Origin: a virus
Lineage: Duplodnaviria; Heunggongvirae; Uroviricota; Caudoviricetes
Length of the DNA: 19,695 nucleotides
Direction: 5' to 3' (one strand)
Virus record (IMG/VR): IMGVR_UViG_2700989272_000006
Location: 1-19,695 of that record
Part shown: positions 142 to 18,446 of the stretch, one piece after another
How the letters are laid out: each line of letters opens with the position of its first letter
Numbering within the stretch: the first letter of the stretch is position 1
Position numbers and translations under genes: made by a program
The notes under the pieces: model-generated
Seen by the model: the letters and a program-made list of their open reading frames with translations, nothing else
Database searches by the model: none
Told to the model about the DNA's origin: nothing

Positions 142-144
142 TGT

Positions 145-2865: not shown

Positions 2866-2932
2866 AACCCCACCTCGCAGATGCGGGTGCTGTGTAATGG
2901 AAATAAAAAGGCCACCTGACGTGGACACCAGA

Positions 2933-4487: not shown

Positions 4488-4615
4488 AGTTGTGTGGCGA
4501 AGTAACCACTCTTAACACACTAATAGCATTTTTGTTATAACACAAGTAGCTCATTCAGTATTTTTAGAATCTTGACTTTCTTAAGCACGGCGAACTCTGA
4601 ATACCAAACATAAAA

Positions 4616-5233: not shown

Positions 5234-5260
5234 AATAACCTCCCGATGAACAGGTATCAT

Positions 5261-5330
5261 CAGGAGGTTATAATAAAATATGATTATTTACTTTGATTGA
5301 ATTTATTACTATATGTAACAATCAATTTCT
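5261..5330 (-). promoter_or_regulatory. Candidate late promoter (pR-prime-like) region overlapping the Q 3' end / Q-205aa intergenic spacer
   Basis: AT-rich stretch with sigma70-like hexamers (e.g. TTGATT ... TAATAAA) directly downstream of Q, where lambdoid phages place pR-prime and qut. Exact -35/-10 not resolved. Confidence 0.25.
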
Positions 5331-5680
5331 AAAGATACCCCCAACATTGCCAGACAACCGTCAATAAACCCTTCAGCTTTCTGCAGTCTGATAACAACCT
5401 GATTAAGTGATATCCCCAGTTTTACCCCCAACGCCCGTAATGTAACCCCATACACATAATACATTTCCAGTAATTCGTATTGATACGGTTCCTTTTTCTT
5501 AAGAACTGTCATTGCAGAGCTAATGATCAGGCCATCGTCATCGCTACATTGCGGGCGGGATTTTACTTTCGAAGGAATTAATCCCTTAAAACCTGCAGCA
5601 ACAGATGACCATTCCACATCCTCGTGATTATTTGCCACCCATGCCCCCCAACGTTCAAGAACCATTTGAATATCACGCAT
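5309..5680 (-). CDS. Q: Late-gene antiterminator Q (short QuuD / 933W-type)
   Basis: MRDIQMVLERWGAWVANNHEDVEWSSVAAGFKGLIPSKVKSRPQC... matches the N-terminus of short Q antiterminators as I recall them; first ATG at 5680 with GGAGAAA SD; positioned immediately upstream of the lysis region. Confidence 0.75.
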   Translation of the reverse strand: MRDIQMVLERWGAWVANNHEDVEWSSVAAGFKGLIPSKVKSRPQCSDDDGLIISSAMTVLKKKEPYQYELLEMYYVYGVTLRALGVKLGISLNQVVIRLQKAEGFIDGCLAMLGVSLEIDCYI

Positions 5681-5697
5681 CAACTTTCTCCACAAAA

Positions 5698-6693
5698 TCA
5701 GGCCAGCACGCCTATTGCCAGCGCACGATCGATAAAACGAAATATCAGCTCCAGCTGGGAGCCATACTTCTCTTCAAATGCCACGGTATCCGCATGCAGC
5801 TCGTCGTGATGCTTTCTGCACAAAGGCAACACAAAGAGGTCATGCGCTTTTGTACCCATTCCACCCTGACCGTGGCCTATCAGGTGGTGGGGATCATCAG
5901 CAGGCTTTCCACAACATGCACACGGCTGTGTCTTAACCCAGCGCGTGTACTTTTCATTAACCCAGCGGCGGCGTTTTGGGCGTAACATAAAAGACTCCGG
6001 CGACTCCGGATCCACTTTCAGCGCCAGCACCTTTTTCGCTTTATCCTGGATGATGCTGGTGGCAGGAACCGAAGGCACAAGGTCACTCTCCCGGGTGACA
6101 GACGGCACAACAGGTTTCGGTAATCTCAGCGCCTTACGGGCTGCGCTTTCAGGTAAGGCATCCGCCAGGTCATTACGAATCAGCCACCAGCACAGTTCCG
6201 GCATTGTCACGGCATGGTTATCATCAAAACCGAGATCCCGACGGACTACAGACAACACCCAGCGGGCACAGTTATCCGTTGCCATTGATTCCAGCCGTTC
6301 CGTGAACTGATCGCGCAGCTGGTTATCGCAGTGCCAGCACAGACGGATTGCGCCCGGAGCGTGTCGCATTGTGGTCATGTTCTCGCTGTGCCAGTCGGAA
6401 TGAGGCCACTGGCAGCCTTTTTCACGAAGTAACCAGCTTTCAAGACATTCCACGCCACCAGCACGACGGATCACTGCCTCATTGCGGAACACGGCCCGAA
6501 CGGCAGGATCATCCGCCAGCGGTTGTGATACCGCCGGAACGGCACCACTGGCGAAAGATGAATAACGTTCCGGCTCAGGCTCCAGCAGGACACGCCCCTG
6601 CATAAACAGGGGCATCAGCTCTGAACCTGGCCTGAACAATACGATCCCCATACGCGGGGCAATTTCAGGGGTCAGTAGTGCTCTCACGGTCAC
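5698..6693 (-). CDS. DUF968-like protein (YdfU-like) with C-terminal HNH/zinc-finger-like motif
   Basis: C-terminal CxxC ... HH ... H pattern (CACCGKPADDPHHLIGHGQGGMGTKAHDLFVLPLCRKHHDELH); occupies the YdfU position upstream of Q. Start uncertain (GTG 6693 or ATG 6651). Confidence 0.65.
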   Translation of the reverse strand: MTVRALLTPEIAPRMGIVLFRPGSELMPLFMQGRVLLEPEPERYSSFASGAVPAVSQPLADDPAVRAVFRNEAVIRRAGGVECLESWLLREKGCQWPHSDWHSENMTTMRHAPGAIRLCWHCDNQLRDQFTERLESMATDNCARWVLSVVRRDLGFDDNHAVTMPELCWWLIRNDLADALPESAARKALRLPKPVVPSVTRESDLVPSVPATSIIQDKAKKVLALKVDPESPESFMLRPKRRRWVNEKYTRWVKTQPCACCGKPADDPHHLIGHGQGGMGTKAHDLFVLPLCRKHHDELHADTVAFEEKYGSQLELIFRFIDRALAIGVLA

Positions 6694-6694
6694 C

Positions 6695-7504
6695 TCAATG
6701 AACGGTATCGAGCAGCTTTAACAGCTCAGGGAATCGGGATTCGAAGAAATGCGGCTGCGTCTCACGCGGATTTGCGGGACTGGTGATGTTCTTGCCGAAC
6801 ATGCAGCCTTTCGCCGTCAGCGACCAGAATTTTTTGATGTTGTTAATCCCGGTACGGCTGTATCGTTCGCGCTGCTCGACGATCCCCAGCTTCACCATCT
6901 GGTGATATGCCTGATTAGCCGTCAGGCGGATACCATACTGCTTCAGCAGTGCACTCAGCGACAGCGTCGGGCGGCTTGAGCCATCAGGCGCGTCAGCAGG
7001 TGCATCAATGGCATAGCGCGGTGCCAGATTCGGTAAGCCAACAGCCTCCTGGAGTTTCTGACAGGCACCAAGCACTGAAGAGTTAGACAGATTTAACTCC
7101 CGGCGCATAAAGTCCAGCAGGATCACGCCAGCCTGCATCTTGTCAGCAGCCTGTCCGGATAACTTTTCCGGCGCGCTGGTTACCATATCGAAAGTACGGA
7201 TCACCTTCAGATGGAATGACGGGCTGATCCACATTGCATAGGCATACACCAGTTCCTTACAGACATACGTTCCCCGTTCATTTCCCCCATGAATCACACT
7301 CACCGGGTCAACACCCAAATTCTGGGTGTTGGTTAATTCATGAACAAGCTCAACAGTTTGTTGGCTGGAAAGAAACTTTCCTGGCTCCTTGGTTCTGGCA
7401 TTTGCACCAGATGCTACTGCTGCGCGATGCAGATCGTTCAGGCTGTAACGCCCATAAGCATCACGACGAACTTCAATACCATCAATGACCATCAGATTAT
7501 TCAT
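6695..7504 (-). CDS. KilA-N domain protein (antirepressor-like)
   Basis: N-terminal KilA-N-like pattern (MVIDGIEVRRDAYGRYSLNDLHRAA...GGNERGTYVCKELVYAYAMWISPSFHLKV); ATG at 7504 with AGGAG-type SD. Confidence 0.7.
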   Translation of the reverse strand: MNNLMVIDGIEVRRDAYGRYSLNDLHRAAVASGANARTKEPGKFLSSQQTVELVHELTNTQNLGVDPVSVIHGGNERGTYVCKELVYAYAMWISPSFHLKVIRTFDMVTSAPEKLSGQAADKMQAGVILLDFMRRELNLSNSSVLGACQKLQEAVGLPNLAPRYAIDAPADAPDGSSRPTLSLSALLKQYGIRLTANQAYHQMVKLGIVEQRERYSRTGINNIKKFWSLTAKGCMFGKNITSPANPRETQPHFFESRFPELLKLLDTVH

Positions 7505-7523
7505 ACTTCGTTTCTCCTCTTAA

Positions 7524-7913
7524 TCAGGCAGCTGCACCCGCCGTTTTCTCGTACTTACTGATAGTGATCTCGACCTTCCCTTCCGGGATAACCGGTCCCC
7601 ACTCCACCAGCATTCTTTTCACCTGACTGTCGTCTTCCCACACCCCCGCGTGGGTCAGGGCGTCAAACAGCGCCTTGTTATAGTTGTCCAGATCGCGGAT
7701 CCTGTTATCCGGAGGAAACAACACGATCTCCACTGAAGCAGGTGCCGACGTTGGTTTCGGCAGACGACGTAACTGCTCAACTATTGCTGCACACGCCGCG
7801 CTCTGGAATTTGCGCCCCGCCGCGCTTATCAGGCTCTTACCTGCAAACGCCACTTTGTTGGGGTGTCGCCAGTACGTGTTCACGCTGGGCGGAAAAGGCA
7901 GTATTAGCTTCAT
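7524..7913 (-). CDS. rusA: Holliday junction resolvase RusA
   Basis: 129 aa; MKLILPFPPSVNTYWRH ... RIRDLDNYNKALFDALTHAGVWEDDSQV matches RusA family hallmarks (PxxxN..Y, catalytic DLDN). ATGA overlap with the upstream gene. Confidence 0.8.
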   Translation of the reverse strand: MKLILPFPPSVNTYWRHPNKVAFAGKSLISAAGRKFQSAACAAIVEQLRRLPKPTSAPASVEIVLFPPDNRIRDLDNYNKALFDALTHAGVWEDDSQVKRMLVEWGPVIPEGKVEITISKYEKTAGAAA

Positions 7914-8236
7914 ACTTTCAGGCCCCTCTCATGTAACCAGTGGGCTGCACGCAACCTGGCGTTCTCCTCACCGGCAAGCAGTGCGCGGATGATACCGACC
8001 GCCTCGCTGTCGTCGTCCTTCACCGCGGTATGAAGCGTGATGCCCCGGGCCACGCCACGCTTTATCGTGATGACGCCTTTTTTCTCCAGTGCGCGAAGAT
8101 GCTCCACCGCTGCATTCACTGAACGGTATCCCAGCATGGTTGCCACCTCCTGATTGGTTGGCGGGAAGCCACGTTCTTTCTGATAAGAAATCAGCATATC
8201 CAGCACCTGCTGCTGGCATTGAGTTAACGTCGTCAT
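7910..8236 (-). CDS. LexA DNA-binding-domain-only protein (winged helix, no S24 peptidase domain)
   Basis: MTTLTQCQQQVLDMLISYQKERGFPPTNQEVATMLGYRSVNAAVEHLRALEKKGVITIKRGVARGITL is collinear with the LexA N-terminal domain (LTxRQxEV ... GxPPT ... EHLKALxxKGxI); only 108 aa, so the catalytic domain is absent. Confidence 0.75.
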   Translation of the reverse strand: MTTLTQCQQQVLDMLISYQKERGFPPTNQEVATMLGYRSVNAAVEHLRALEKKGVITIKRGVARGITLHTAVKDDDSEAVGIIRALLAGEENARLRAAHWLHERGLKV

Positions 8237-8886
8237 GCCGCCATCTCCCTGACCAGTTTTTCTGCCTGCTGGCGAACCTGCGCCAGAAAGGCCTCACCAC
8301 ATGCCTCAAGTTCATCGCGCCCGATGTAGCTGATTGCCGGTCCCTTCCAGGTCTTGTCGAAAACAGCAATAGCACCAGCGAAGAAAGCGCCTGTCGGCAC
8401 CTGCTTCTCATCCTTCGGGATAAACCAGGCAGGCAGTTCAAAACCAATACGCCCGCGAATAAAAGCAATATGATCTGCATCTTCCGGCCACCACACTTCG
8501 CTGGTGGCAGCTTTGATCAGGAAAACATAGCGCCCGCCTTTATCACGCATGGCACTGGCATGCTTCATGATGTAACGCATGCCGGTGATGTATTGCCCCT
8601 CATGCTGACTGGCGCGGCTGTATGGGGGATTACCAAAGGCAGCACCTTTAAGCTCCGCAAGGCGTTCTGACCAGTCATGCGCCAGCGCGTTGTCTTCCGC
8701 CGTGTAATACGCAGCACATTTGGCGTTATCACCGTCAGTGAACAGATCCAGAACAAACGGGCCAAACAGGGTGTTAATTCCCCAGAAAATGTTGTCCGGC
8801 GTGCGCCACTGATCGCCCACTTCCTTCAGTTCATGGGCTGGTTTGTTCCGCAGTTCCGCCAGCGCCTGGCAATATTTATTACTCAT
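8233..8886 (-). CDS. Phage Dam-type DNA N6-adenine methyltransferase
   Basis: NPPY catalytic motif (FGNPPYS) in a phage N-6-adenine-MTase-like context; ATG at 8886 in a TAATG overlap with the upstream gene; ATGA overlap with the downstream gene. Confidence 0.8.
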   Translation of the reverse strand: MSNKYCQALAELRNKPAHELKEVGDQWRTPDNIFWGINTLFGPFVLDLFTDGDNAKCAAYYTAEDNALAHDWSERLAELKGAAFGNPPYSRASQHEGQYITGMRYIMKHASAMRDKGGRYVFLIKAATSEVWWPEDADHIAFIRGRIGFELPAWFIPKDEKQVPTGAFFAGAIAVFDKTWKGPAISYIGRDELEACGEAFLAQVRQQAEKLVREMAA

Positions 8887-9380
8887 TAAGCCCCCACGTA
8901 ATTCCCTGAGAGATACCACTCTTCACCTGATGCAGCCCGCTTACTGCTTTTCCGTAAACACCGTTCACGACGCGCCAGAAAATTGTTTCGTTCTGGCTGG
9001 GAGTGGCTTTCACGGAATGCCGCCATCCACACCGTTGCAGCACGACGGTATAAGCCCCTCGACTCCAGTTCTTCAGCCTGGCGGGTCAGGCACAAAATCA
9101 CCCGGGGGTCGTTAGTGCCGACATAGAACTTGCGCACAGGTCTGGTTTCACGAACTGGTTGTGGTTCCGGCTCCTGCGCTCTCTCAGTCAGGCGCGAGAA
9201 ATGTCTGCGTGTATCTCCTTCACAACGGTGAGCCACACGCCCACTCTGACGTAACTTGCTTGCTGACTGCAGAACGCGCTGCCGTGAGTAACCTGCAAAA
9301 GCATCCGCAATGTCTCCGGAAGTACAGCCCGGATGGGCTTCAATGAATTTCTGAACTTCATTCAAAATACTCATGCTCAC
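8886..9380 (-). CDS. wHTH-PerC-like protein (C-terminal PerC-family motif)
   Basis: C-terminal segment AEELESRGLYRRAATVWMAAF...ARRERCLR resembles the PerC/Pch signature (LExxGLWRRAAxRW) as I remember it; N-terminal 90 aa look like a winged helix. Start GTG 9380 (GTGA overlap with O-like stop) or ATG 9374. Confidence 0.45.
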   Translation of the reverse strand: MSMSILNEVQKFIEAHPGCTSGDIADAFAGYSRQRVLQSASKLRQSGRVAHRCEGDTRRHFSRLTERAQEPEPQPVRETRPVRKFYVGTNDPRVILCLTRQAEELESRGLYRRAATVWMAAFRESHSQPERNNFLARRERCLRKSSKRAASGEEWYLSGNYVGA

Positions 9381-10369
9381 CCCCTGAATCCTGCCGGGAT
9401 CTGGCTGTAGTCCACGTTGTCGTAACTGGATTTGAAATATGGGTCTTCGCGTTTTTCTGTGTATGTGCTGACGGACGGCGATAAGCGCAGGGAAAGCTCA
9501 TCCCATTTTTCCCGCAGCTTCGACGGGCTGAGCACGTTACGGCACCAGAACGGATCGCGGCTGACGCGGCTGTACATCTCGCAGATTTGTTTGTGAGTAC
9601 GACCATCCTGCACACACATCAGGCGAATTTCGTTTGCCCAGGCTGTCCAGTTCGGTTCTTTGGGACGAACCACCTCGCCGTCACATTCGGCGGCCTGCTC
9701 GTACAGGGCGATGATTTTTTTCCAGAGCCACTGTGCGCAGGTCAAATCATCCTGCGTTCCCCACTGGCGCTTTTTAGGGCTGAATACAACCGCATCAGGA
9801 TGGCGAGTTAAAAACTCCTGTTCAGCCGTTTGCGTGTCCGGTTGCGAAGCGTCCGGACGAGAAGAGGTTTTATTCTCTGTAGTAATCTCTGTTGTATTCT
9901 CTGTAAGATCATTGGGCCATTTTGACCCGATGACAGCGTGTCGTTTTGAACCAATGGATCGTGTCATTTTGCGCCCATCCATCAGGTCACTTTGACCCGA
10001 TGGAGAAGTGCATTTTGACCTGATGGATTCGTTCACTTTGACCTCTTCTAAAAGCTCACTTTCATAGTTGATCGTGTAGAAGTTGGTCATGTCACGCTTC
10101 GATTTATTGAGTTGCTCGCGACGCAAAACCCCAAGTGATTTCAGGCTTGCAAATGTGCGTTTCAGAGTGGACTCTGACCAGAACGGAAACTGCTCCAGCC
10201 ACTGTTCTGTCGTGTTATAAACCCAGCGAATTCCGCCATGCTCAGTGCCTGAATTCGTTTCATTCAGCCAGTAATGAAGCTGCTGCAACACAATTGCCTC
10301 ATTCAGACCAATACGGCATGCAAGATCACGATTTATCACAATGGGCTGGGATGTCATTAACAGGCTCAT
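9377..10369 (-). CDS. Replication initiator (lambda O-like; iteron-containing gene)
   Basis: 330-aa ORF containing an internal array of six direct repeats plus 12-bp repeats encoding a Thr/Glu/Asn-rich linker (TENTTEITTENKT), the hallmark of lambdoid O genes that carry ori; N-terminal domain is HTH-like. The C-terminal domain family is not confidently assigned. Confidence 0.7.
   Translation of the reverse strand: MSLLMTSQPIVINRDLACRIGLNEAIVLQQLHYWLNETNSGTEHGGIRWVYNTTEQWLEQFPFWSESTLKRTFASLKSLGVLRREQLNKSKRDMTNFYTINYESELLEEVKVNESIRSKCTSPSGQSDLMDGRKMTRSIGSKRHAVIGSKWPNDLTENTTEITTENKTSSRPDASQPDTQTAEQEFLTRHPDAVVFSPKKRQWGTQDDLTCAQWLWKKIIALYEQAAECDGEVVRPKEPNWTAWANEIRLMCVQDGRTHKQICEMYSRVSRDPFWCRNVLSPSKLREKWDELSLRLSPSVSTYTEKREDPYFKSSYDNVDYSQIPAGFRG
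9872..9907. repeat. Three tandem 12-bp repeats (TCTCTGT core) flanking the iteron array
   Basis: ctctgt cores at 9875, 9887 and 9899; adjacent to the iterons, analogous to the repeat/AT-rich region next to lambda ori; encodes the TEN/TEI/TEN linker. Confidence 0.55.
9918..10045. repeat. Origin-like iteron array: six direct repeats (consensus approx CAYTTTGACCYGATGG) at 23-bp spacing
   Basis: Repeat starts at 9918, 9941, 9965, 9988, 10011, 10034 (cattttgacccgatg / tcgttttgaaccaatgg / cattttgcgcccatcc / cactttgacccgatgg / cattttgacctgatgg / cactttgacctc), all inside the O-like gene. Confidence 0.75.
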
Positions 10370-10590
10370 GCCGCACCTCCGAGATGCTTCATGTTTTTTC
10401 CGGAGCGAAAGGCTATAAGCGGCATACTGACGCGGTAATTACGGCCCAGCGGTTCACAAATCACCTTCTGACATTCACGGTCAACCAGGCTAACACGTAG
10501 AACATGCCCTGCAGGCGTGGTGTACCACTGACCGGGGCGAGGACAACGGAAAGTCTGATTGGTAAATCGTTTGAAAATATTCCGGATCAT
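10366..10590 (-). CDS. Hypothetical protein (74 aa), translationally coupled within the replication operon
   Basis: ATG at 10590 overlaps the Rha-gene TGA stop (ATGA), and its own stop overlaps the O-like ATG (ATGA); no recognisable domain. Confidence 0.5.
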   Translation of the reverse strand: MIRNIFKRFTNQTFRCPRPGQWYTTPAGHVLRVSLVDRECQKVICEPLGRNYRVSMPLIAFRSGKNMKHLGGAA

Positions 10591-11735
10591 TTGCGCCCCC
10601 TTACCTCTGAAGAGTTCAGCGACGAATGAATAAGACGGGCAAGAAATGCCGCATCGTTAATTCGGTCATACAGACTTACAGCCAGAGGTGATTCAGCTTT
10701 TTCCAGCATGGGATAAAGCTGCTGCAACCAGACCTGATGAATTGATGAAATGTAGGAATAGAGAACGCTGGCGTTATGTGCAACGTCGCTCGGTACAGCG
10801 GGCTTTGAAAGCTGTTTCTCCATCTGGTTAAAGGCATTGATGTATGCCTCTTTGAACTGGGCAGCACGTTTACCCGTGAAACCCATAGCAAGAAACGCAA
10901 AGCCGTCGCGGGTTATTTGATAGCAAGGTAGTTTGCGGCCTGTGCAATCGGTGTAATCACTCACCGAAAAATTGCGGGCAGTGAATGATGCGGAACATTC
11001 AAGCGTGCGGATCTTTTTCAGTACATCGTCATGACGTTTGGAGAAGAAGTTGGCAACAGCCAGGGATGAAGTAACAGCCTGACCATCAACGATGGCAATT
11101 TCAGGTTGAGTGAGGGTTGGGATCGTAGCCATGATGGCAGTCTCCGATAACAGTGAATTACCTTCACCACCGGAAACGCCAATTTCGCTGGTGGTGAACT
11201 GAACGGGGTTGGCGTAACCGGCGTTATCGGAAACCGGCGCACCTTTCGGTGCCCCCGTCCAGCCCACCATAATTTGGGTGTGCACAGACGCAGACGATAA
11301 AAAAGACGCTGGCGCGTCATATATCGCCGATAACATTTCCAGGACGCCAATCCCGACACCCGCTTTATAAGGTGCCTGAACAGTGTAACGTCCCGGAATG
11401 GCAGAATCAATGTGCTGGTGGTCCTTCACACTCAACAAAATCACGCCTGAATTTCCACAAAGGACTAAAGCACTCATGCGGGTAGTCTTTGCGAAGATAG
11501 ATAACGCGCTGTGTTTCTGGCTCCCAACGAATAACATGGACATAAAGCCCTCTTCCGTCACGAAACCAGCGGTTAAGTTCCTGCACAACTCGCCCCCCAC
11601 AGTCAGGTAAAGTTCTCTGTGGTTACTTACAGCCAGGTGATTTGGTAATCTGCATTCATGCCGTAACAACAGGTGTTCAGCGACGCTGACCACCAGCTGT
11701 TGCGACAAACGGTTATTTGCCGTTAAACTGTTCAT
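10587..11735 (-). CDS. Rha-domain phage regulatory protein with about 200-aa N-terminal extension of unknown function
   Basis: Residues about 205-300 (VTSSLAVANFFSKRHDDVLKKIRTLECS...YQITRDGFAFLAMGFTGKRAAQFKEAYINAF) match the Rha/ORF6-type pattern; ATG at 11735 with GGAGAAA SD and ATGA overlap with the upstream stop support the long form. The N-terminal half has atypical composition. Confidence 0.6.
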   Translation of the reverse strand: MNSLTANNRLSQQLVVSVAEHLLLRHECRLPNHLAVSNHRELYLTVGGELCRNLTAGFVTEEGFMSMLFVGSQKHSALSIFAKTTRMSALVLCGNSGVILLSVKDHQHIDSAIPGRYTVQAPYKAGVGIGVLEMLSAIYDAPASFLSSASVHTQIMVGWTGAPKGAPVSDNAGYANPVQFTTSEIGVSGGEGNSLLSETAIMATIPTLTQPEIAIVDGQAVTSSLAVANFFSKRHDDVLKKIRTLECSASFTARNFSVSDYTDCTGRKLPCYQITRDGFAFLAMGFTGKRAAQFKEAYINAFNQMEKQLSKPAVPSDVAHNASVLYSYISSIHQVWLQQLYPMLEKAESPLAVSLYDRINDAAFLARLIHSSLNSSEVRGRK

Positions 11736-12295
11736 GCGTTAGTTTCTCCACAGACACAAAACGCCACGACGCCCGGAGCTGCACACTCGCGGGCGTCACT
11801 CTTTTCTGGAGCGCAAAAGATTTTGTAGACCAGTGCTGCATGCTCCTGGAGCTTCGAAATTGACAGATACAACTCATCATTAATTGCTGTCTGCTCGTGT
11901 GGCTCCACTACCCCATCTTCGATTGCCGAACGAATCTGCTTTGAGTAACTCCCGATCTGTTCGATGACTTCCAGCAGGCGCTGGTTTATATCGGCGTTCT
12001 CTACTTCCTCAAGTTCAGGAAGCGATACAAACACCCCACCAGCAGACTGTGCGACAGCATCCGCAATGTAGTGAGTGCCAGCCGCGCGCTGTAAAATCAT
12101 TGCCCATCCCAGCGGGAAAATCTGATCGCCATCTGCACGAAGGCGGTTGAATAAAGCGTTCTCTGTTACATCCAGCCACTCAGCAGCTTCAGCGTAACCT
12201 CCCGGCAACGCCGCGATAGTTTTTCTGACAGCTTTCACGTACCACTCAGGCTGTTTTTCTACTTTCCAGTGATGCTTACCCACGGTTAGCCTCAT
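11732..12295 (-). CDS. Early regulatory protein in cII position (cII/YdaT-like), function unverified
   Basis: 187-aa ORF directly downstream of cro-like gene; HTH-like segment (GYAEAAEWLDVTENALFNRLR); assignment is positional. Confidence 0.45.
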   Translation of the reverse strand: MRLTVGKHHWKVEKQPEWYVKAVRKTIAALPGGYAEAAEWLDVTENALFNRLRADGDQIFPLGWAMILQRAAGTHYIADAVAQSAGGVFVSLPELEEVENADINQRLLEVIEQIGSYSKQIRSAIEDGVVEPHEQTAINDELYLSISKLQEHAALVYKIFCAPEKSDARECAAPGVVAFCVCGETNA

Positions 12296-12326
12296 CGTTC
12301 TGTGGTTAAAAATTGAAGGTGTTCTG

Positions 12327-12527
12327 TTAATCTTTCGGATAGATATCCGGTCTTAAGTCAGATTTCGTAATTGCACCTGACGTGCATTGCTCAAGTTTTT
12401 TAGCCAGCACAAAACTGGCTTTTTTATAACCATTGAAAACCAGCCGTAAGTAGCCTGGTGTTGAGCCAACTTTTCCGGCCAACTCGCCCTGCTGTTCTTT
12501 GGTTAAAGAGTCCCAATACGCTTTCAT
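12327..12527 (-). CDS. cro: Cro-like repressor (66 aa)
   Basis: C-terminal part of ORF 12327..12830 (MKAYWDSLTKEQQGELAGKVGSTPGYLRLVFNGYKKASFVLAKKLEQCTSGAITKSDLRPDIYPKD) resembles Cro/YdaS-type HTH; internal ATG at 12527 has a GGAGG SD and lies just downstream of the PR-like promoter. The upstream part of the ORF overlaps cI antisense and is considered non-coding. Confidence 0.65.
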   Translation of the reverse strand: MKAYWDSLTKEQQGELAGKVGSTPGYLRLVFNGYKKASFVLAKKLEQCTSGAITKSDLRPDIYPKD

Positions 12528-12617
12528 ACAATATGTACCTCCGATATACATATTACATGATTGAGATGAACCTTCAAGATACTTGTACCCTATCGGTACA
12601 AAGGTTTTAATTTCGTT
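12528..12617. promoter_or_regulatory. OR-like divergent control region: two 19-bp palindromic operators (12533-12551 ATGTACCtccgaTATACAT; 12583-12601 TTGTACCctatcGGTACAA) and PR-like promoter (minus; -35 TTGAAG 12572-12577, -10 TAATAT 12550-12555)
   Basis: Perfect or near-perfect 7-5-7 palindromes sharing the half-site (A/T)TGTA(C/T)C, positioned between divergent cI-like and cro-like genes; the -10 overlaps operator 1. Confidence 0.65.
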
Positions 12618-13292
12618 ATGAAAACAGTCCATGACATCCGGCGGTCTAACGCCAGAAAACTGAGAGATGGTGTTGGCGGGAATTCTTCCTTTGCCACCAT
12701 GATTGATCGCGAGCCAACCCAGACCAGCAGGTTTATGGGAGATGGTGCTACTAAAAATATCGGTGACAGCATGGCACGGCACATCGAAAAATGTTTCGAC
12801 CTGCCTGTCGGATGGCTTGATCAAGAACACCAGACAACAAACATCACAAAAAAACCTGATGTTTCAATTACTAACAAACAAATAACGTTAGTCCCTGTCA
12901 TATCATGGGTACAGGCCGGAGCATGGAAAGAAGTTGGCTATTCTGAGGTTGATTTGAGCACAGCAGAAACTTATCCCTGCCCTGTACCCTGTGGCGAAAT
13001 GACTTATATCTTGCGGGTGATTGGTGATTCAATGATTGATGAGTACCGCCCGGGAGACATGATTTTTGTTGATCCTGAAGTCCCTGCCTGCCACGGTGAC
13101 GACGTTATTGCATTGATGCACGATACAGGCGAAACCACCTTCAAGCGGTTGATAGAAGATGGAACACAGCGTTACCTCAAAGCATTAAACCCAAACTGGC
13201 CTGAACCTTACATTAAGATCAACGGTAATTGCTCTATAATTGGTACAGTGATTTTCTCAGGAAAACCAAGAAGATACAAAATAAAGGCCTAA
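12618..13292 (+). CDS. cI: CI-like prophage repressor with C-terminal S24 (LexA-like) autopeptidase domain
   Basis: C-terminal domain with Ser/Lys dyad context (VIGDSM ... TFKRL) and Ala-Gly cleavage-site-like motif (VISWVQAGAW); N-terminal 70 aa HTH-like; divergent from cro with operators between. An in-frame TGA at 12567-12569 rules out an upstream extension. Confidence 0.85.
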   Translation: MKTVHDIRRSNARKLRDGVGGNSSFATMIDREPTQTSRFMGDGATKNIGDSMARHIEKCFDLPVGWLDQEHQTTNITKKPDVSITNKQITLVPVISWVQAGAWKEVGYSEVDLSTAETYPCPVPCGEMTYILRVIGDSMIDEYRPGDMIFVDPEVPACHGDDVIALMHDTGETTFKRLIEDGTQRYLKALNPNWPEPYIKINGNCSIIGTVIFSGKPRRYKIKA

Positions 13293-13304
13293 TCAATATT
13301 TATA

Positions 13305-13328
13305 ACCTGCTTCGGCAGGTTTTTTTAT
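13305..13328 (+). terminator. Intrinsic terminator after cI (acctgc-ttcg-gcaggt + TTTTTTAT)
   Basis: 6-bp GC-rich stem, GNRA-like tetraloop, 6-T run immediately downstream of cI stop (13290-13292). Confidence 0.7.
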
Positions 13329-13330
13329 AC

Positions 13331-13375
13331 TTGACAATGTACCCTTGAGATACATAATGTATCTAAAAGAAACAT
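13331..13375 (+). promoter_or_regulatory. pL-like promoter (-35 TTGACA 13331-13336, 16-bp spacer, -10 CATAAT 13353-13358) overlapped by two operator palindromes (13337-13355 ATGTACCcttgaGATACAT; 13357-13375 ATGTATCtaaaaGAAACAT)
   Basis: Consensus -35 and near-consensus -10 with proper spacing; operators share the half-site found in OR and sit in the spacer and over the -10, as expected for repressor control of an early-left promoter. Confidence 0.7.
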
Positions 13376-13978
13376 AACACAGGCAAGATTAAACTAAATT
13401 TGGTTGTAACACGGCGTATGGCACATGCGTCGTTAGCGGTCTGGGGACGTTAAAGGGGACAATCCACTCCTTGCTCGAGCAAACAAACCAGGTAGCCGGA
13501 ATGTGCAAGTCAATGATGATGCTGATAAGACGCCTAACCAGCGTGGCGATTCGGTTTGACGCCTGGGAAGAGACCAGGGTGCAACGATGAGGGCATTTAT
13601 GGAACCGCGACAAAGTGTGGTGCCGTAACTGGCTAAGTGCTCTCAGCGTTGTGGTGAATGCGCAGGCTGATGCGCGAAAGACATTGCAGCTATTGCGGAA
13701 AAGAGCTGTTCGGCGGGGCAATTAAACGCCCGTGAGAGTCTGAAATAACCGCAAGCCGGAGATCAGCACCGGTCACCACAACAGCCACTGCTTTGGCGGT
13801 ACCAGTTTGTACACTTGCTTCCGGCTGGTACCGCTCTTTTTACAAAACAGAGAAGAGCATCACCGGACGACGGGCTCATAACCCAATCCATCCGGGCGGC
13901 TGCCACCGCAGGTGTTCTTCTCTGTTTTGTGGAGAAACTAACCGACCTTGCAGGGTCGATATGATGAGGAGCAGCAAA

Positions 13979-14341
13979 ATGGCTAGCGAACGCAGTACTG
14001 ATGTGCAGGCATTTATCGGGGAGCTGGACGGCGGCGTATTTGAAACCAAAATCGGCGCAGTTCTCAGTGAAGTCGCTTCCGGTGTGATGAACACGAAAAC
14101 CAAAGGTAAGGTCTCGCTCAACCTGGAAATCGAACCATTTGATGAGAACCGTGTGAAAATCAAACACAAACTCTCATATGTTCGCCCGACTAACCGCGGG
14201 AAAATTTCCGAAGAAGACACCACCGAAACACCGATGTATGTCAATCGCGGTGGTCGCCTGACTATTCTGCAGGAAGACCAGGGACAATTACTGACTCTTG
14301 CCGGTGAACCTGACGGAAAACTACGCGCAGCAGGTCATTAA
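13979..14341 (+). CDS. Hypothetical early-left protein (120 aa; YfdP-like by size and position, unverified)
   Basis: ATG at 13979 with GAGGAG SD 7 nt upstream; the longer ORF-track form (from 13793) lacks an SD and is probably leader. Confidence 0.55.
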   Translation: MASERSTDVQAFIGELDGGVFETKIGAVLSEVASGVMNTKTKGKVSLNLEIEPFDENRVKIKHKLSYVRPTNRGKISEEDTTETPMYVNRGGRLTILQEDQGQLLTLAGEPDGKLRAAGH

Positions 14342-14406
14342 TATCGTTCTTAATTAACTGATTATTTATCTCATCACTGAATATCTTTATATAGTGAGGA
14401 CTGATT

Positions 14407-15231
14407 ATGTCTCATAACTTAGACGCAACCGCAATTAATCAAATCCATGCCCTTATTTCTGCTCAGGGTGTTAATGAAATCATCAGTAAGATTGGTGCCG
14501 ATGCTGTGGCATTGCCTGAGAATTTCCGCATTCATGATCTGGAAAAATTTAATTTAAATCGTTTCCGTTTCCGTGGTGCGCTTTCCACTGCCAGCATCGA
14601 TGACTTTACCCGTTATTCTAAAGATCTTGCAGATGAAGGCACCCGCTGCTTTATCGATGCCGATAATATGCGTGCCGTCAGTGTGCTTAACCTGGGTACT
14701 ATTGATGAGCCAGGTCACGCAGATAACACTGCCACTCTCAAACTGAAAAAGACAGCACCGTTCTCTGCTCTGTTGTCTGTTAATGGCGAGCGTAACTCCC
14801 AGAAGTCACTGGCAGAATGGATTGAAGACTGGGCCGACTACCTTGTGGGCTTTGATGCTAATGGTGACACCATTCAGGCAACCAAAGCGGCTGCGGCGAT
14901 CCGTAAAATCACAATTGAAGCGAACCAGACCGCTGATTTTGAAGATAATGACTTCAGCGGCAAACGCTCCCTGATGGAGTCTGTCGAAGCGAAGACCAAA
15001 GACATTATGCCAGTGGCATTTGAATTTAAATGCGTTCCGTTTGAAGGCCTGAAAGAACGTCCATTTAAATTACGCCTCAGCATTATCACTGGCGATCGTC
15101 CTGTACTGGTTCTGCGCATTATTCAGCTGGAAGCGGTGCAGGAAGAAATGGCTAACGAATTTCGTGATCTGCTTGTTGAGAAATTCAAAGACAGCAAAGT
15201 AGAAACCTTTATTGGTACTTTCACCGCCTGA
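14407..15231 (+). CDS. Hypothetical protein, DUF2303-like (YfdQ-like), 274 aa
   Basis: ATG at 14407 with GAGGA SD; size and operon context match the CPS-53 yfdQ-type gene as I recall it; no catalytic motif identified. Confidence 0.6.
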
Positions 15232-15358
15232 TTTCATTACTGCAAATGCCCCTGCGGGGGCATTTATGGAAACGTAATTAACTCAATAATCACCGAATGG
15301 TGAGGGCTTCCTTTTACCAGAATTCAGCGCGGTGCAGTGCATATACGTGGAGAACAAA

Positions 15359-15895
15359 ATGTCATTTATTAAAACTTTTTCCGGGAAGCATTTTTATTAT
15401 GACAAGATAAATAAAGACGACATCGTTATTAACGATATCGCGGTTTCCCTTTCAAATATCTGTCGCTTTGCAGGACATCTTTCACACTTCTACAGCGTCG
15501 CCCAACATGCGGTGCTTTGCAGCCAGCTGGTACCGCAGGAATTTGCTTTTGAAGCGTTAATGCATGATGCAACAGAAGCATATTGTCAGGACATCCCCGC
15601 ACCACTGAAACGCCTTCTTCCTGACTATAAACGGATGGAAGAAAAAATAGACGCCGTAATCCGTGAGAAATACGGGTTACCTCCTGTTATGAGCACGCCA
15701 GTGAAATATGCCGATCTCATTATGCTGGCAACCGAACGCCGCGATCTCGGGCTTGATGATGGTTCTTTCTGGCCTGTACTGGAAGGTATCCCGGCGACAG
15801 AGATGTTCAAAGTTATTCCACTGTCACCAGGCCATGCCTACGGGATGTTTATGGAACGTTTTAACGAGTTATCGGGGTTACGCAAATGCGCATGA
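15359..15895 (+). CDS. HD-domain phosphohydrolase (YfdR-like 5'-deoxynucleotidase family), 178 aa
   Basis: HD motif in LMHDATEAYCQDIP plus upstream His (FAGHLSHF...AQH); ATG at 15359 with GGAGAA SD; the ORF-track start at 15332 lacks an SD. Confidence 0.7.
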   Translation: MSFIKTFSGKHFYYDKINKDDIVINDIAVSLSNICRFAGHLSHFYSVAQHAVLCSQLVPQEFAFEALMHDATEAYCQDIPAPLKRLLPDYKRMEEKIDAVIREKYGLPPVMSTPVKYADLIMLATERRDLGLDDGSFWPVLEGIPATEMFKVIPLSPGHAYGMFMERFNELSGLRKCA

Positions 15896-16473
15896 ATGTT
15901 TTCGAAATGGAAGGGTTTCTTCGCGGGAAATGTGTACCGCGAGATCTGAAAGTGAACGAAACAAACGCTGAGTACCTGGTGCGTAAATTTGCTGAAGCTG
16001 AGGCCAAGTGCGCGGCGCTGGCTGAACGTATCGAAGAGTTACAGACAAAACCTACGCCAGATTCGTTTGGCATCATCGGTGAAAACATTCGAACACAGGA
16101 TAATCGAATAACGTCAGACCCTATGTTTTGTGTGTATCAAAAGCGCGAAATTGTTGTTGATGCTGATTATGACTATGACCGGATTGTCTGGGTTGATGAA
16201 GATAGCAATGAAGCCAATAAACTCCAAAGTCGTCGTCTCGAACTACTTCATGAAAACTTTCGGGAACCACCAGAAAAATGGCGGCGCGTTGCTGTGAAAG
16301 ATATTGATGAATTCGTTACCTGCTGTTTCACCGAACAGGGTTGTAAAGACTACCTGGCAGCCAATGGTCACAATCTTCGCTTGCCATTTATATATGTAAA
16401 AAGCGGTTTCAGGAACGCTGAATATATCGGCATAAGAAACTGGCTTGCTGGCATTCGCATCAAAGGAGAGTGA
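15886..16473 (+). CDS. Hypothetical protein (195 aa)
   Basis: ORF overlapping the stop of the HD gene by 10 nt; acidic, coiled-coil-like N-terminus; no recognised domain. Confidence 0.55.
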   Translation: MRMNVFEMEGFLRGKCVPRDLKVNETNAEYLVRKFAEAEAKCAALAERIEELQTKPTPDSFGIIGENIRTQDNRITSDPMFCVYQKREIVVDADYDYDRIVWVDEDSNEANKLQSRRLELLHENFREPPEKWRRVAVKDIDEFVTCCFTEQGCKDYLAANGHNLRLPFIYVKSGFRNAEYIGIRNWLAGIRIKGE

Positions 16474-16474
16474 G

Positions 16475-16666
16475 ATGATCGGACAAATATCAATTGTTCG
16501 ACCGGGAGCATGTGACGATCGCGAGATACGAATGATTATTCGTCTGGCAATAGGGAAAACAATAACTGCTCTCATTACTCCTGAAAATCTCGCATTAGCG
16601 TTAACAGGAAAGTCAGACCTGCCAGTAGAGCTAAAGCTGCGAAATATTGAGATTAAAGTGAAATAG
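16475..16666 (+). CDS. Small hypothetical protein (63 aa)
   Basis: ATG at 16475 with GGAGAG SD; the stop of the preceding gene overlaps the start (TGAGATG). Confidence 0.4.
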   Translation: MIGQISIVRPGACDDREIRMIIRLAIGKTITALITPENLALALTGKSDLPVELKLRNIEIKVK

Positions 16667-16668
16667 TT

Positions 16669-17556
16669 ATGAATACTCTTACCAAAGAATGGTTACAGAA
16701 CACGATTACCGGAATTGAGTCGATAATAGACGATAAATCGTTTGTATGTAGTGAAATAGCATTCGAAATAGGTGTGGTTAACAACATACTTACCGCATTT
16801 AAAATTGCACTGGCATCGCTGGAAGCAGATCCAGTTGCTTATATTTTCAAACATCCGGCCGGGAAATTATTCTGGGCTTTAACTGATGAAAGCAATAAAG
16901 AGCAAGCTGACGTTATTCCTGTTTATGCTGCCGCGCCTGCGTCGGTTGTGCCGGATAATGCATCAGAGCCTCTTGCTTATGCTTACAAAGAGCTTACGCC
17001 TGAGATTATGCGCAACCATTTAGCTGTATTCGAGCGATATGGAATAGCCCCAAACGATAGCTCTACCACAATTCAGGCACTGCGAATCGCGCTGGATGGC
17101 ATAGAGCGGAGCGGCGCCATGCTTCATGGTGCCGAACCTGTAAGCCAAACTTACAAGTTGCCTCCCCTGTCATCCAACGAAGTAAACGACGCGGCATGGA
17201 AATTACGCAACATGCTTACTGAACACGGTCCTCTTAATGGGCGTCAGTTCAACAATCTGAAAGGTTGCTTCTATGAGGCATTAAAGGTCGCAATGCGCAA
17301 CTATCCGGTAACTCCGGATAGTTGGATAAGCTGTAGTGATCGAATGCCAGAAATGGGAGAGCGACAATGCTATGCGTTAGCGGCTGACTTTAAAAACAAC
17401 TACCCGCCACACATCCCCAACACTCAGGTCGGCGTATATGGCGACTGGTTTAATGATGGCGATCCCACTTGGGTTGACGGTGATGGCGAAGACCTGTATC
17501 TCAAAGAGGTAACCCACTGGATTCCGCTACCAGAACCGCCGCAGGAGGTGAAGTGA
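16669..17556 (+). CDS. Hypothetical protein with DUF551-like C-terminus
   Basis: C-terminal ...EVTHWIPLPEPP motif typical of DUF551 phage proteins (from memory); 295 aa; the stop overlaps the next gene start. Confidence 0.6.
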   Translation: MNTLTKEWLQNTITGIESIIDDKSFVCSEIAFEIGVVNNILTAFKIALASLEADPVAYIFKHPAGKLFWALTDESNKEQADVIPVYAAAPASVVPDNASEPLAYAYKELTPEIMRNHLAVFERYGIAPNDSSTTIQALRIALDGIERSGAMLHGAEPVSQTYKLPPLSSNEVNDAAWKLRNMLTEHGPLNGRQFNNLKGCFYEALKVAMRNYPVTPDSWISCSDRMPEMGERQCYALAADFKNNYPPHIPNTQVGVYGDWFNDGDPTWVDGDGEDLYLKEVTHWIPLPEPPQEVK

Positions 17557-18128
17557 TGAACAACTTAATGATCGACCTTGAGACGATGGGGAAAAATAAG
17601 GATGCACCGATCGTTTCCATTGGCGCGGTGTTCTTCACTCCAGAAACCGGAGACATCGGACAAGAATTCTATACGGTTGTTAGCCTGGAAAGTGCTATGG
17701 GGCAAGGAGCTACACCTGACGGCGATACCATCCTGTGGTGGTTGAAACAAAGCCCTGAAGCACGAGCTGCAATCTGTATTGATGATACTTTGTCGATCAG
17801 CGATGCTCTCTCAGAACTAAATCATTTCATTAACCGGCACGCAGACAATACGAAATATTTAAAAGTCTGGGGTAACGGAGCCACCTTCGACAACGTAATT
17901 TTACGTGGAGCTTATGAGCGAGCAGGACAAATCTGTCCGTGGGCATACTGGAATGACCACGATGTACGCACGATCGTTACGCTTGGGCGTTCCATCGGAT
18001 TCGACCCCAAAATGGACATGCCTTTCGATGGCGAACGGCACAACGCCATGGCTGATGCCCGTCATCAGGCAAAATATGTTTCCGCTATCTGGCAGAAATT
18101 AATTCCTGCCACCAGCACAGAATTATGA
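17556..18128 (+). CDS. DEDDh-type 3'-5' exonuclease (DnaQ/RNase T-like fold)
   Basis: Exo motif I (IDLETMG), motif II-like (WGNGATFD), motif III (HNAMADARH); ATG at 17556 with GGAGGTG SD 5 nt upstream (the GTG at 17553 is the alternative start). Confidence 0.8.
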   Translation: MNNLMIDLETMGKNKDAPIVSIGAVFFTPETGDIGQEFYTVVSLESAMGQGATPDGDTILWWLKQSPEARAAICIDDTLSISDALSELNHFINRHADNTKYLKVWGNGATFDNVILRGAYERAGQICPWAYWNDHDVRTIVTLGRSIGFDPKMDMPFDGERHNAMADARHQAKYVSAIWQKLIPATSTEL

Positions 18129-18164
18129 TTTTCCCGGGTGCAGCCGGTTTTGATGGAGAAAATT

Positions 18165-18446
18165 ATGAACACCTTGTTTTTACTGATGGCTGAATTCAAT
18201 ACCCCTAACATTGAACTCTCAGCAGTTAGCCAAAAGTACTTTGGCATGAGTCCAGCCACGGCAGAAGCAAAAGCAAACGCTTGTAAGTTGCCCGTTCCAA
18301 CATATCGCATCGGCACATCACAAAAAGCAAAACGTTGCATCAATATTCAGGATCTTGCGGAATACATAGACAAAAGACGAGAAGAAGGACGTATCGAGTG
18401 GGAACAGGTCAGAACAAGCAAACAGAAGGGCAAAGAACATCACTAA
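18165..18446 (+). CDS. Small DNA-binding protein, PrtN/excisionase-like (tentative)
   Basis: MNTLFLLMAEFNTPNIELSAVSQKYFGMSPATAEAKANACKLPVPTYRIGTSQKAKRCINIQDLAEYIDKRREEG resembles the PrtN-family pattern as I recall it; last gene of the early-left operon before the terminator. Start 18165 or 18153. Confidence 0.5.
   Translation: MNTLFLLMAEFNTPNIELSAVSQKYFGMSPATAEAKANACKLPVPTYRIGTSQKAKRCINIQDLAEYIDKRREEGRIEWEQVRTSKQKGKEHH

Follow-up and report, generated by a model that had tools for sequence, protein, structure and literature searches.

The recombination genes of lambda (exo-bet-gam) and P22 (erf-abc-arf) lie midway along the pL operon, between the immunity region and xis, which is the position examined here. 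Zheng et al. (2025, PMC12315714) described a class of lambdoid phages that have no Rec module, are rich in Chi sites, carry yfdP/Q/R as a cluster and replicate with an O-only module. Their lack of Red genes was explained by reliance on host RecBCD and Chi, which was shown experimentally for phage LLS only, and a 3'-5' DEDDh-type nuclease next to xis was not counted as a Rec-module gene (PMC12315714). The cryptic K-12 prophage CPS-53 (KpLE1) has a related gene order, yfdP-yfdQ-yfdR-yfdS-yfdT-ypdJ-torI.

We compared these systems with a phage-derived stretch of 19,695 nucleotides (the window). Our favored and reasonably probable account is that its early-left segment is the pL operon from a lambdoid prophage of E. 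coli, of the SfV/ST64B/mEp460/LLS type, which truly lacks a Rec module, belongs to the high-Chi class and has core genes that most likely target host replication.

Table 1. Features of the window discussed in the text.
Feature	Position	Strand	Description
Chi sites, all 16 (GCTGGTGG)	1532..18116	both	0.66 expected; 0/200 shuffles reached 16
Chi sites, n=11	1532, 2941, 3280, 4100, 4421, 6184, 6455, 7604, 11690, 12036, 18109	-	
Chi sites, n=5	3286, 6055, 8500, 11187, 11414	+	
DUF968/HNH protein	5698..6693	-	nin region
RusA	7524..7913	-	nin region
cI-like repressor	12618..13292	+	S24 LexA-type peptidase domain (Pfam Peptidase_S24, 92.8 bits); co-directional with early-left operon
Terminator-like hairpin and T-run	13304..13321	+	just past cI stop codon; pattern scan
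Candidate pL	13331..13363	+	TTGACA-16-CATAAT; 11/12 consensus match
Intrinsic-terminator-like hairpin	13796..13841	+	GGCGGUACCAG...CUGGUACCGC then UCUUUUU; in leader, ~440 nt downstream of candidate pL
Y-shaped RNA structure	13835..13940	+	~25-bp closing helix; directly 5' of yfdP; conserved, very stable
yfdP	13979..14341	+	120 aa; first gene of operon, partner of yfdQ; phrog_204; precomputed PF27127
yfdQ	14407..15231	+	274 aa; DUF2303 (PF10065), 311 bits
yfdR	15359..15895	+	178 aa; HD-domain protein; in K-12 a weak 5'-deoxynucleotidase and DnaA binder
195-aa protein	15886..16473	+	YfdS/Ea22-type N-terminal module, phrog_3205 C-terminus; mosaic accessory gene
63-aa basic protein	16475..16666	+	phrog_1222
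DUF551 protein	16669..17556	+	295 aa, acidic, pI 4.7; C-terminal PF04448 (residues 218-292), 63 bits
DEDDh 3'-5' exonuclease	17556..18128	+	Rv2179c-like/T4 DexA family; best family PF16473, 250 bits
PrtN-family small DNA-binding protein	18138..18446	+	PF11112, 81.8 bits; phrog_1300 'excisionase', E 8e-40

Organization and spread of the operon

The segment contains eight co-directional genes, correctly listed in the original prediction, and its bounds are exact: 13979 is the start of the yfdP ATG and 18446 the final base of the stop codon of the PrtN-like ORF. Neighboring genes overlap or are tightly packed (spacing of -10 to +127 nt), with Shine-Dalgarno sequences before most of them. Three parts make up the operon: a conserved promoter-proximal core (yfdP-yfdQ-yfdR), an exchangeable mosaic middle, and a distal pair consisting of a DexA-family exonuclease and a PrtN-family putative excisionase.

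This operon is ordinary, widespread and already known. DNA of the region was matched in 3812 of 5426 complete E. coli genomes and is 96-98% identical to that of mEp460, Stx2c and Stx2k phages and cdtI. In the early-left operons of mEp460, SfV, cdtI and the Stx2 phages this identity extends over most of the segment and takes in yfdPQR, the DUF551 protein, the exonuclease and the excisionase. mEp460 differs in having four other small ORFs and an Ea22-like gene in place of the 195-aa gene, and the middle genes are shuffled within the group. The order cI, long leader, yfdP-Q-R, variable genes, DEDDh exonuclease and xis is common to ST64B, phiNP and (as far as its region reaches) Eeyore, whose YfdQ shows just 55-58% identity. 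Across 80 IMG/VR loci with an approximately 99% identical yfdQ, yfdP is present in all 80 and yfdR in 78; the window's exonuclease and its xis are each found in 19, the 63-aa ORF in 14 and the 195-aa gene in only 4. The 195-aa protein has no Pfam match, and its residues 1-88 are 52% identical to YfdS.

CPS-53 shares the first three genes and their order with the window at 98-99% protein identity (YfdP 99.2%, YfdQ 98.9%, YfdR 97.8%), along with a DUF551 domain, a distal excisionase and the YfdS N-terminus that recurs in the 195-aa protein. It differs in having lost its immunity region and in its distal genes, with YfdT, YpdJ and TorI set against the 63-aa protein, DUF551 protein, DexA-like exonuclease and PrtN-type Xis of the window, where no YfdT homologue was found.

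Rec genes and Chi sites

The original prediction that the operon lacks Red-type genes was borne out by Pfam and PHROG scans of the window's main ORFs, which returned no SSAP (Bet/RecT/Erf), 5'-3' exonuclease, Gam/Abc2 or SSB; this absence holds for the window, which spans about 20 kb, whereas the whole prophage should measure some 40-45 kb and could encode a recombinase elsewhere, atypical as that would be. None of the component families of lambda Red or its P22 counterpart is present, and the only nuclease at the equivalent position is the 3'-5' DEDDh enzyme beside xis. RusA and the DUF968/HNH protein are the only recombination-related genes in the window.

Chi is the commonest octamer in the window, followed by TGCTGGTG. 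Fifteen of the 16 sites lie within 1-12043, the right-operon/lysis part, and the late-gene strand carries 11, a bias (11:5) less marked than that seen in complete genomes of this class. Over the full length of mEp460, 16 Chi sites are on the top strand, 14 of them in the right half, and 4 on the bottom strand. LLS, ST64B and phiNP, which belong to the 'no Rec module, high Chi' LLS functional type (PMC12315714), resemble the window in their lambdoid layout, in having yfdP/Q/R and lacking SSAP, exonuclease, Gam and SSB genes, in their O-only replication (the window, like LLS, has just an O-like replication module) and in having Chi as the most frequent octamer, concentrated on the late-gene strand and towards the right end. 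LLS has no recombination-related nin gene, whereas the window has RusA. In such a phage a Chi-loaded genome would stand in for Red/Erf enzymes and a RecBCD inhibitor, and host RecBCD-RecA would supply the recombination that gives packageable concatemers; we infer this use of host enzymes from the density and orientation of Chi.

Candidate functions of the core and distal genes

Profile searches recovered the DUF2303 and DUF551 domains named in the original prediction, and did so less clearly for the HD protein: YfdR scored 24.1 bits against the Pfam YfbR-like family, slightly below the 25.9 cut-off, and matched phrog_318 (dNMP phosphatase, E 4e-111) and the HD protein in PDB 2gz4 (E 2.6e-13). 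The proposed RNase_T assignment of the exonuclease gave way to PF16473, as PF00929 reached 20.8 bits against a cut-off of 24.

K-12 YfdR has a much lower nucleotide affinity than YfbR and binds DnaA domain I at Phe46, with DiaA and DnaB as competitors (PMC4776307). Overexpression of yfdQ and yfdR together with yfdS or yfdT inhibits oriC initiation, an assay in which YfdP is dispensable; the DnaA effect was seen on multicopy overexpression only, and a yfdQRST deletion had no phenotype (PMC4776307). The core genes would thus most likely act on host replication, rather than on recombination or immunity, and by extension from the K-12 overexpression results, a YfdQ+YfdR+(YfdS or YfdT)-type depression of oriC may take place during phage growth. 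Against this account stand those limits of the K-12 data, the dispensability of YfdP, a conserved partner of YfdQ, the lack of a YfdT homologue in the window, and two observations that do not follow from the DnaA model: in Burkholderia phage JC1, YfdQ is associated with the virion (PMC9144972), and in PDB 9o7m, the sole match in profile searches of PDB sequences, a YfdQ homologue assembles into 36 chains. Lambda P is likewise an early phage protein that binds host DnaA and disturbs oriC initiation, a functional analogy drawn in PMC4776307. The two proteins are not homologous, and P targets DnaA domain III and loads DnaB, whereas YfdR targets domain I. We know of no helicase-loading activity of YfdQRS.

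The exonuclease (190 aa) is 32% identical to T4 DexA (227 aa) and matches its structure 8kel (E 9e-11). D7, E9, D112, H162 and D167 are invariant in an alignment with DexA and a Vibrio-phage DnaQ-like exonuclease; W132 aligns with DexA W152 and S80/D83 with DexA S87/D90. The PrtN-family protein is probably the excisionase (RDF), and its translation probably begins at an internal ATG, either 18153 or 18165. Its mEp460 counterpart is annotated as excisionase, and its gene stands where CPS-53 has TorI. In the nearest E. coli prophage, no further gene separates it from the prophage end, taken as the dusA fragment.

The original prediction read the HD protein and the exonuclease as counter-defence or nucleotide-pool factors acting on cyclic-nucleotide signals, modified dNTPs or retron/defence nucleic acids. 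The genes are early, accessory-like and in a mosaic region, HD and DEDDh folds are chemically fit for nucleotide or oligonucleotide hydrolysis, and the poor dNMPase affinity of YfdR could mean that its true substrate is another (PMC4776307). We nonetheless found no support for this reading and regard it as very unlikely. DnaA is the demonstrated protein target of YfdR, PADLOC reported no defence family beyond one weak generic DEDDh match, and no link between YfdR and anti-defence appeared among the 15 top-ranked literature matches. Anti-defence loci typically turn over fast, whereas yfdP-Q-R is 98-100% identical among E. coli prophages and keeps its synteny as far as phages of Salmonella and Citrobacter, and the right operon encodes better anti-restriction candidates, namely its two DNA methyltransferases. 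The original prediction had itself held that assignment to known replication or recombination families, together with knockouts free of a defence phenotype, would speak against it, and the YfdR-DnaA data, the DexA family and the RecBCD/Chi explanation of the missing Red genes point largely that way. The E. coli DexA-family member EcD (HREX) was reported to act in defence against T4 rather than in anti-defence (PMC12153337), so that some distal genes could instead be prophage defence or exclusion functions benefiting the lysogen, with the exonuclease as an HREX-type nuclease against modified-DNA phages. The window's enzyme shares the DEDDh catalytic residues and the W152-equivalent tryptophan with DexA and EcD, and a Panacea toxin-antitoxin pair adjoins. 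This too seems improbable, since the exonuclease lies in a repressed pL operon behind a terminator, making expression in the lysogen unlikely. It also keeps the S/D pair that supports the DexA tetramer, where EcD has Ala at the D90 position; DexA D169 is not clearly conserved; and its conserved placement beside xis in phages capable of lytic growth points to a role in the phage cycle.

It is equally doubtful that YfdP-YfdQ, possibly with the exonuclease, form an unrecognised DNA-annealing or recombination-mediator module replacing Red. Conservation of the pair reaches from E. coli as far as Xanthomonas/Xylella phages, YfdQ is flanked by a DnaQ-like exonuclease and an SSB in Vibrio phages (PMC3558961) and comes directly after gam-recT-exo-ssb in P13374, and the 36-chain assembly recalls SSAP rings or filaments. 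The pair, however, also adjoins complete canonical Rec modules in P13374, Xylella phage Usme, JC1 (RecT + YqaJ) and ArgO145 (PMC12315714), which makes hidden recombinases unlikely. Predicted models of both proteins showed no likeness to Rad52/Redbeta/Erf, RecA or Gp2.5 folds, both are acidic (pI 5.0 and 5.7), SSAP-type resection calls for the opposite polarity to that of a 3'-5' exonuclease, and Chi enrichment points to RecBCD reliance.

Promoter and leader RNA

The counterpart of the cI-like repressor in the nearest E. coli prophage is annotated as ymfK/LexA family. Candidate pL overlaps a near-perfect 15-bp palindrome, GATACATAATGTATC, which is likely an operator. As an incidental result, the leader was seen to carry a conserved terminator and a very stable RNA structure shortly before yfdP. 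The terminator hairpin has a fold energy of -21.2 kcal/mol (z -4.5), and an alignment inspected by eye placed an equivalent hairpin and T-run, with a different stem sequence, in ST64B, phiNP and Eeyore. The Y-shaped structure folds at -51.2 kcal/mol (z -8.1) and had no match in an Rfam search; RNAalifold on four divergent phages (13826-13978) predicted 43 pairs, 37 of them within this structure and 4 with compensatory changes. By analogy with the lambda N leader, it may be a target of RNase III or another processing site. Given its place behind these two elements, the operon is probably expressed under antitermination or RNA processing, as in lambda N/tL1.

Composition and spread of the early-left operon

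The window covers part of a lambdoid prophage. The predicted boundaries of the early-left (pL) operon are exact, coinciding with the start codon of yfdP and the end of the final ORF (see table). Its genes overlap or follow one another closely, and most of them are preceded by ribosome-binding sites. Every element of the predicted gene list – two DUF-type proteins (YfdP and YfdQ), an HD-domain protein (YfdR), two proteins of unknown type, a DUF551-like protein, a DnaQ-like exonuclease and a PrtN-like protein – was borne out by Pfam and PHROG profile searches. YfdP belongs to phrog_204, YfdQ matches DUF2303 (311 bits in the Pfam search), one protein carries a DUF551 domain at its C-terminus (63 bits) and two proteins matched no Pfam family. 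NCBIfam models, applied to ten proteins, gave nothing useful for any of them.

Features of the window, with strand and position relative to neighbouring elements
Feature	Coordinates	Strand	Remarks
Lysis, Q, nin-region, replication and cII/cro-like genes	1 to ~12530	-	
DNA methyltransferase	2933-3985	-	
108-aa LexA-domain protein	7910-8236	-	
DNA methyltransferase	8233-8919	-	
Replication module	9377-10369	-	
Ash/Rha antirepressor ORF, 382 aa	10587-11735		
C4 antisense RNA and isrK matches	11187-11375	-	82.8 and 61.5 bits
Weak related copy of palindrome	12525-12539		near cro side; 3 mismatches
cI repressor, S24-type	12618-13292	+	
Terminator	13304-13321	+	after cI
Strong promoter-like site, near consensus (TTGACA-16-CATAAT)	13331-13363	+	promoter-like site itself 13331-13358; overlaps 15-bp palindrome GATACATAATGTATC
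Terminator-like hairpin and U-tract	about 13796-13841	+	~440 nt past candidate pL; -21.2 kcal/mol, z -4.5
Y-shaped RNA structure, 106 nt	13835-13940	+	directly after hairpin, just upstream of yfdP; -51.2 kcal/mol, z -8.1
Early-left operon	13979-18446	+	starts 686 nt past cI; first position is yfdP ATG, last is end of final ORF
DEDDh exonuclease gene	17556-18128	+	
PrtN-family gene (xis)	18138-18446	+	
Panacea-domain gene	18707-19695	-	interval includes overlapping gene of 139-aa partner; Panacea-domain gene cut by window end

For the exonuclease, the assignment to the DEDDh group holds, whereas the proposed RNase_T family scored below threshold; the protein instead belongs to the Rv2179c-like family PF16473 (250 bits, cut-off 27; all 177 profile positions covered), and its catalytic residues D7, E9, D112, H162 and D167 show no variation in the alignment. 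The PrtN-like protein matches PF11112 (81.8 bits, cut-off 24.2) and the PHROG excisionase family phrog_1300 (E 8e-40). We predict it to be an excisionase; its mEp460 counterpart is annotated as one, and its gene is the last of the pL operon ahead of the prophage end.

The operon closely resembles part of CPS-53, a cryptic prophage of Escherichia coli K-12. YfdP, YfdQ and YfdR are 99.2%, 98.9% and 97.8% identical to their CPS-53 counterparts over their full lengths and are encoded in the same order. Downstream, a 195-aa protein matches YfdS over its N-terminal 88 aa only (52% identity), the DUF551 domain sits on a different protein from the YfdS-like one, no YfdT homologue was found in the operon and the position of CPS-53 TorI is taken by the PrtN-family gene.

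At the DNA level the region is 96-98% identical to mEp460, 1720a-02, phiSTEC1575-Stx2k, cdtI and many Stx2c phages, and it is matched in 3812 of 5426 complete E. coli genomes (~70%). The best genome match is a prophage in strain ZH142, where a dusA fragment at the prophage end points to dusA as the apparent site. Several Shiga-toxin phages (Stx2a, Stx2c and Stx2k) contain the yfd cluster.

Among 80 IMG/VR loci with ~99% identical yfdQ, which are near-identical E. coli sequences and report on mosaicism rather than deep diversity, yfdP is present in all and yfdR in 78, the window's exonuclease and its xis in 19 each and the 195-aa gene in four. These counts thus describe a conserved yfdP-yfdQ-yfdR core followed by a mosaic tail. 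Diversity was taken instead from an annotated phage collection, in which the architecture is kept in Salmonella ST64B, Citrobacter phiNP and, within the region fetched, E. coli phage Eeyore. The common order is cI, a leader of 0.7-1 kb, yfdP-yfdQ-yfdR, variable genes, the DEDDh exonuclease and xis, and in this comparison YfdQ is only 55-58% identical.

Absence of a Rec module and abundance of Chi sites

The operon lacks Red-type recombination genes, as had been predicted. Pfam and PHROG scans of all main ORFs of the window, which spans the entire early-left and early-right operons, revealed no single-strand annealing protein (Bet, RecT, Erf, Sak or Sak4), no 5'-3' dsDNA exonuclease (lambda Exo, YqaJ or RecE) and no RecBCD inhibitor (Gam or Abc2) or phage SSB. 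The sole exonuclease is the 3'-5' PF16473 enzyme, and the only recombination-related genes encode RusA and a DUF968/HNH (NinG-like) protein, both in the nin region. When the Gam, RecT, Exo and Ssb proteins of phage P13374 were used as queries, nothing was found in the 80 related loci.

This lack is already explained in print. LLS, a lambdoid phage isolated by Zheng, Casjens, Davidson, Amundsen and Smith (Genome Res 2025; PMC12315714), has neither a Rec module nor a RecBCD inhibitor, carries 23 Chi sites and has its growth enhanced by RecBCD. Its early-left operon resembles those of ST64B and phiNP and contains yfdP-, yfdQ- and yfbR (yfdR)-type genes, and its sole replication gene is O-like. 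Phages of this kind make up 68 of 314 enterobacterial lambdoid phages, and the same trend, as the authors note, appears earlier in Bobay et al. (2013) (PMC12315714). The authors also state that DnaQ-type nucleases near int do not belong to the Rec module.

The window fits the LLS class. Its early-left operon is free of Rec genes and stands in lambdoid gene order, and its 19.7 kb contain 16 Chi sites, compared with 0.66 expected from shuffles and ~4 at the published host density of one per 4.6 kb. Among octamers Chi ranks first in frequency and TGCTGGTG second, an order identical to that reported for LLS and P1. Members of the class have at least eight Chi sites oriented along the late-gene strand, the putatively active direction, and at most six pointing the other way; in the window alone the numbers are 11 and 5, with 15 of the 16 sites in the right-operon/lysis part. 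Our count for the complete genome of the close relative mEp460 gave 16 top-strand sites (14 of them in the right half) and four on the bottom strand. The replication module likewise has an O-like initiator as its sole component; no helicase loader of the P, DnaC or DnaB type was found in the window, a peculiarity also reported for LLS.

The observation is confirmed, and what it describes is a very common module that was already known. It re-discovers a documented, large class of lambdoid phages that do without a recombination module and compensate via Chi and host RecBCD.

The leader RNA upstream of yfdP

The promoter-like site that follows the cI terminator, together with its palindrome, plausibly represents pL/oL; the cro side offers just one related palindrome, and a weak one (see table). 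The terminator-like hairpin upstream of yfdP suggests that the operon probably needs terminator read-through. Equivalent hairpins with different stem sequences are present in ST64B, phiNP and Eeyore.

In a comparison with the same three phages, conservation is highest in the adjoining Y-shaped structure, the rest of the leader being divergent. RNAalifold placed 43 pairs in 13826-13978, 37 of them within this structure and four with compensatory changes, and an Rfam search of the leader at a permissive threshold gave no match. By analogy with the lambda N leader, the long perfect helix looks like a putative RNase III-type processing site, and hairpin and Y-shaped structure together may be a point at which the operon is controlled by antitermination or RNase III. 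A small N-like ORF between 13365 and 13795 was considered and rejected: this interval contains only ORFs of 25-39 codons, none conserved by eye in the four-phage alignment.

On the opposite strand, C4 antisense RNA and isrK score above the Rfam gathering threshold inside or upstream of the annotated Ash/Rha antirepressor ORF. Their presence at this ORF suggests that an antirepressor is under antisense control of the P1/P7 type, and their positions suggest that the 382-aa ORF call is over-extended.

Candidate roles of the early-left proteins

The HD-domain protein YfdR matches phrog_318 (E 4e-111), is homologous to the HD protein 2gz4 (E 2.6e-13) and displays the H...HD...D residues, while scoring just under the cut-off for the YfbR-like Pfam family PF12917 (24.1 versus 25.9 bits) and below that of an NCBIfam equivalog (19.8 versus 122). 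Noguchi and Katayama found that K-12 YfdR binds DnaA and has a much lower nucleotide affinity than YfbR; that multicopy yfdQ and yfdR, combined with yfdS or yfdT as the necessary third component, counteracts over-initiation and inhibits initiation at oriC, both in vivo and in vitro; and that YfdP is dispensable for this inhibition and deletion of the cluster is without phenotype (PMC4776307). For the ancestral phage they proposed a function similar to that of lambda P (PMC4776307). At 97.8% identity to the K-12 protein, the window's YfdR would be expected to bind DnaA and its cluster to inhibit oriC initiation. Speculatively, the O-only replication module could be linked to YfdR binding the DnaB-interaction site on DnaA.

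The question left is what the very common yfdP-yfdQ-yfdR core does at the molecular level. An answer on whether it interferes with the initiation of host replication would matter for prophage induction and for the biology of toxin phages; the question has already been posed in the literature, and the window brings no new kind of evidence to it. What interest is left lies in the biochemistry of the YfdP-YfdQ pair and in the conserved leader RNA.

YfdP and YfdQ form a promoter-proximal two-gene cassette that ranges from E. coli to phages of Vibrio and Xanthomonas/Xylella, their pairing being conserved out to the latter (hhalign probability 99%). In Vibrio phages YfdQ is encoded between a DnaQ-like exonuclease and SSB (see also PMC3558961), and DUF2303/YfdQ has been found in virions of Burkholderia phage JC1 (PMC9144972). 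According to a preprint, expression of YfdQ sets off the production of another phage. Among solved folds, the only detectable resemblance of YfdQ is to its own homologue: profile searches of PDB sequences with YfdQ and YfdP alignments matched only 9o7m ('YfdQ Protein'), a large homo-oligomer which comprises 36 chains of a YfdQ homologue traced to a Xanthomonas phage (98.8% identical to MET23-P3). A Foldseek search of the PDB with the YfdQ model returned nothing at E <= 0.001, the 9o7m coordinates evidently lying outside the set searched. We found no publication describing 9o7m, and rejected it as a YfdP-YfdQ complex, the YfdP homologue of the source phage being absent from the PDB.

Phages without a Rec module might be suspected of encoding a hidden recombinase in the yfdP-yfdQ-yfdR cluster. 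Zheng et al. considered this unlikely because the cluster co-occurs with complete Rec modules (PMC12315714), and our observations argue in the same direction. Stx2a phage P13374 has a DUF2303 gene directly 3' of gam-recT-exo-ssb, JC1 has one alongside RecT and YqaJ (PMC9144972), and YfdP-YfdQ head an early operon with recombinase, exonuclease and SSB genes in Xylella phage Usme (locus L088, 8532-9786); nor do the YfdQ and YfdP models contain a recombinase fold. A different possibility is that YfdP-YfdQ together with YfdR constitute a new host-replication takeover device, which might capture DnaA and DnaB for phages that carry no helicase loader of the P type and whose sole initiator is O-like, or alternatively a new DNA-transaction assembly on incoming phage DNA. 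We regard this proposal as rather improbable.

The original prediction had also floated the HD protein and the exonuclease as anti-defence or nucleotide-pool-modifying factors. This interpretation is largely unsupported, with nothing in our searches or reading to back it. PADLOC, whose models cover defence systems, turned up no homologue related to defence or anti-defence apart from one weak generic DEDDh match, and no top-ranked literature match linked the operon to anti-defence. The exonuclease is homologous to T4 DexA (PDB 8kel; E 9e-11, 32% identity) and shares its DEDDh residues, whose E. coli homologue EcD is a reported defence nuclease against T4 (PMC12153337). A defence exonuclease of the HREX type, like EcD with its Ala at the D90 position, would be expected to lack the D90-equivalent Asp (the dimer-only form) and to retain the 5hmC-recognition Trp and Asp (PMC12153337). 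The window's enzyme keeps Asp at the D90-equivalent position (D83), and we rejected its identification with EcD because this diagnostic residue differs; the tryptophan equivalent to DexA W152 is conserved (W132), whereas the equivalent of D169 is not clearly so. The yfdP-yfdQ-yfdR core is moreover strongly conserved rather than fast-evolving, and on existing data YfdR has a host replication target. A counter-defence role for the early-left genes appears improbable.

Two DNA methyltransferases, one of the N6_N4_Mtase type and one Dam-like, are encoded in the late-proximal and nin regions. These right-operon enzymes make more conventional counter-restriction candidates than do the early-left genes. 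Between the Dam-like methyltransferase and RusA lies a protein consisting of a LexA DNA-binding domain without the S24 cleavage domain, which could be an uncleavable LexA-like repressor.

At the other end of the window, a gene with a Panacea (SocA-like antitoxin) domain overlaps that of a 139-aa phrog_19071 protein. PADLOC returned no match for either, and the two are probably a toxin-antitoxin or defence pair situated between xis and the prophage end.
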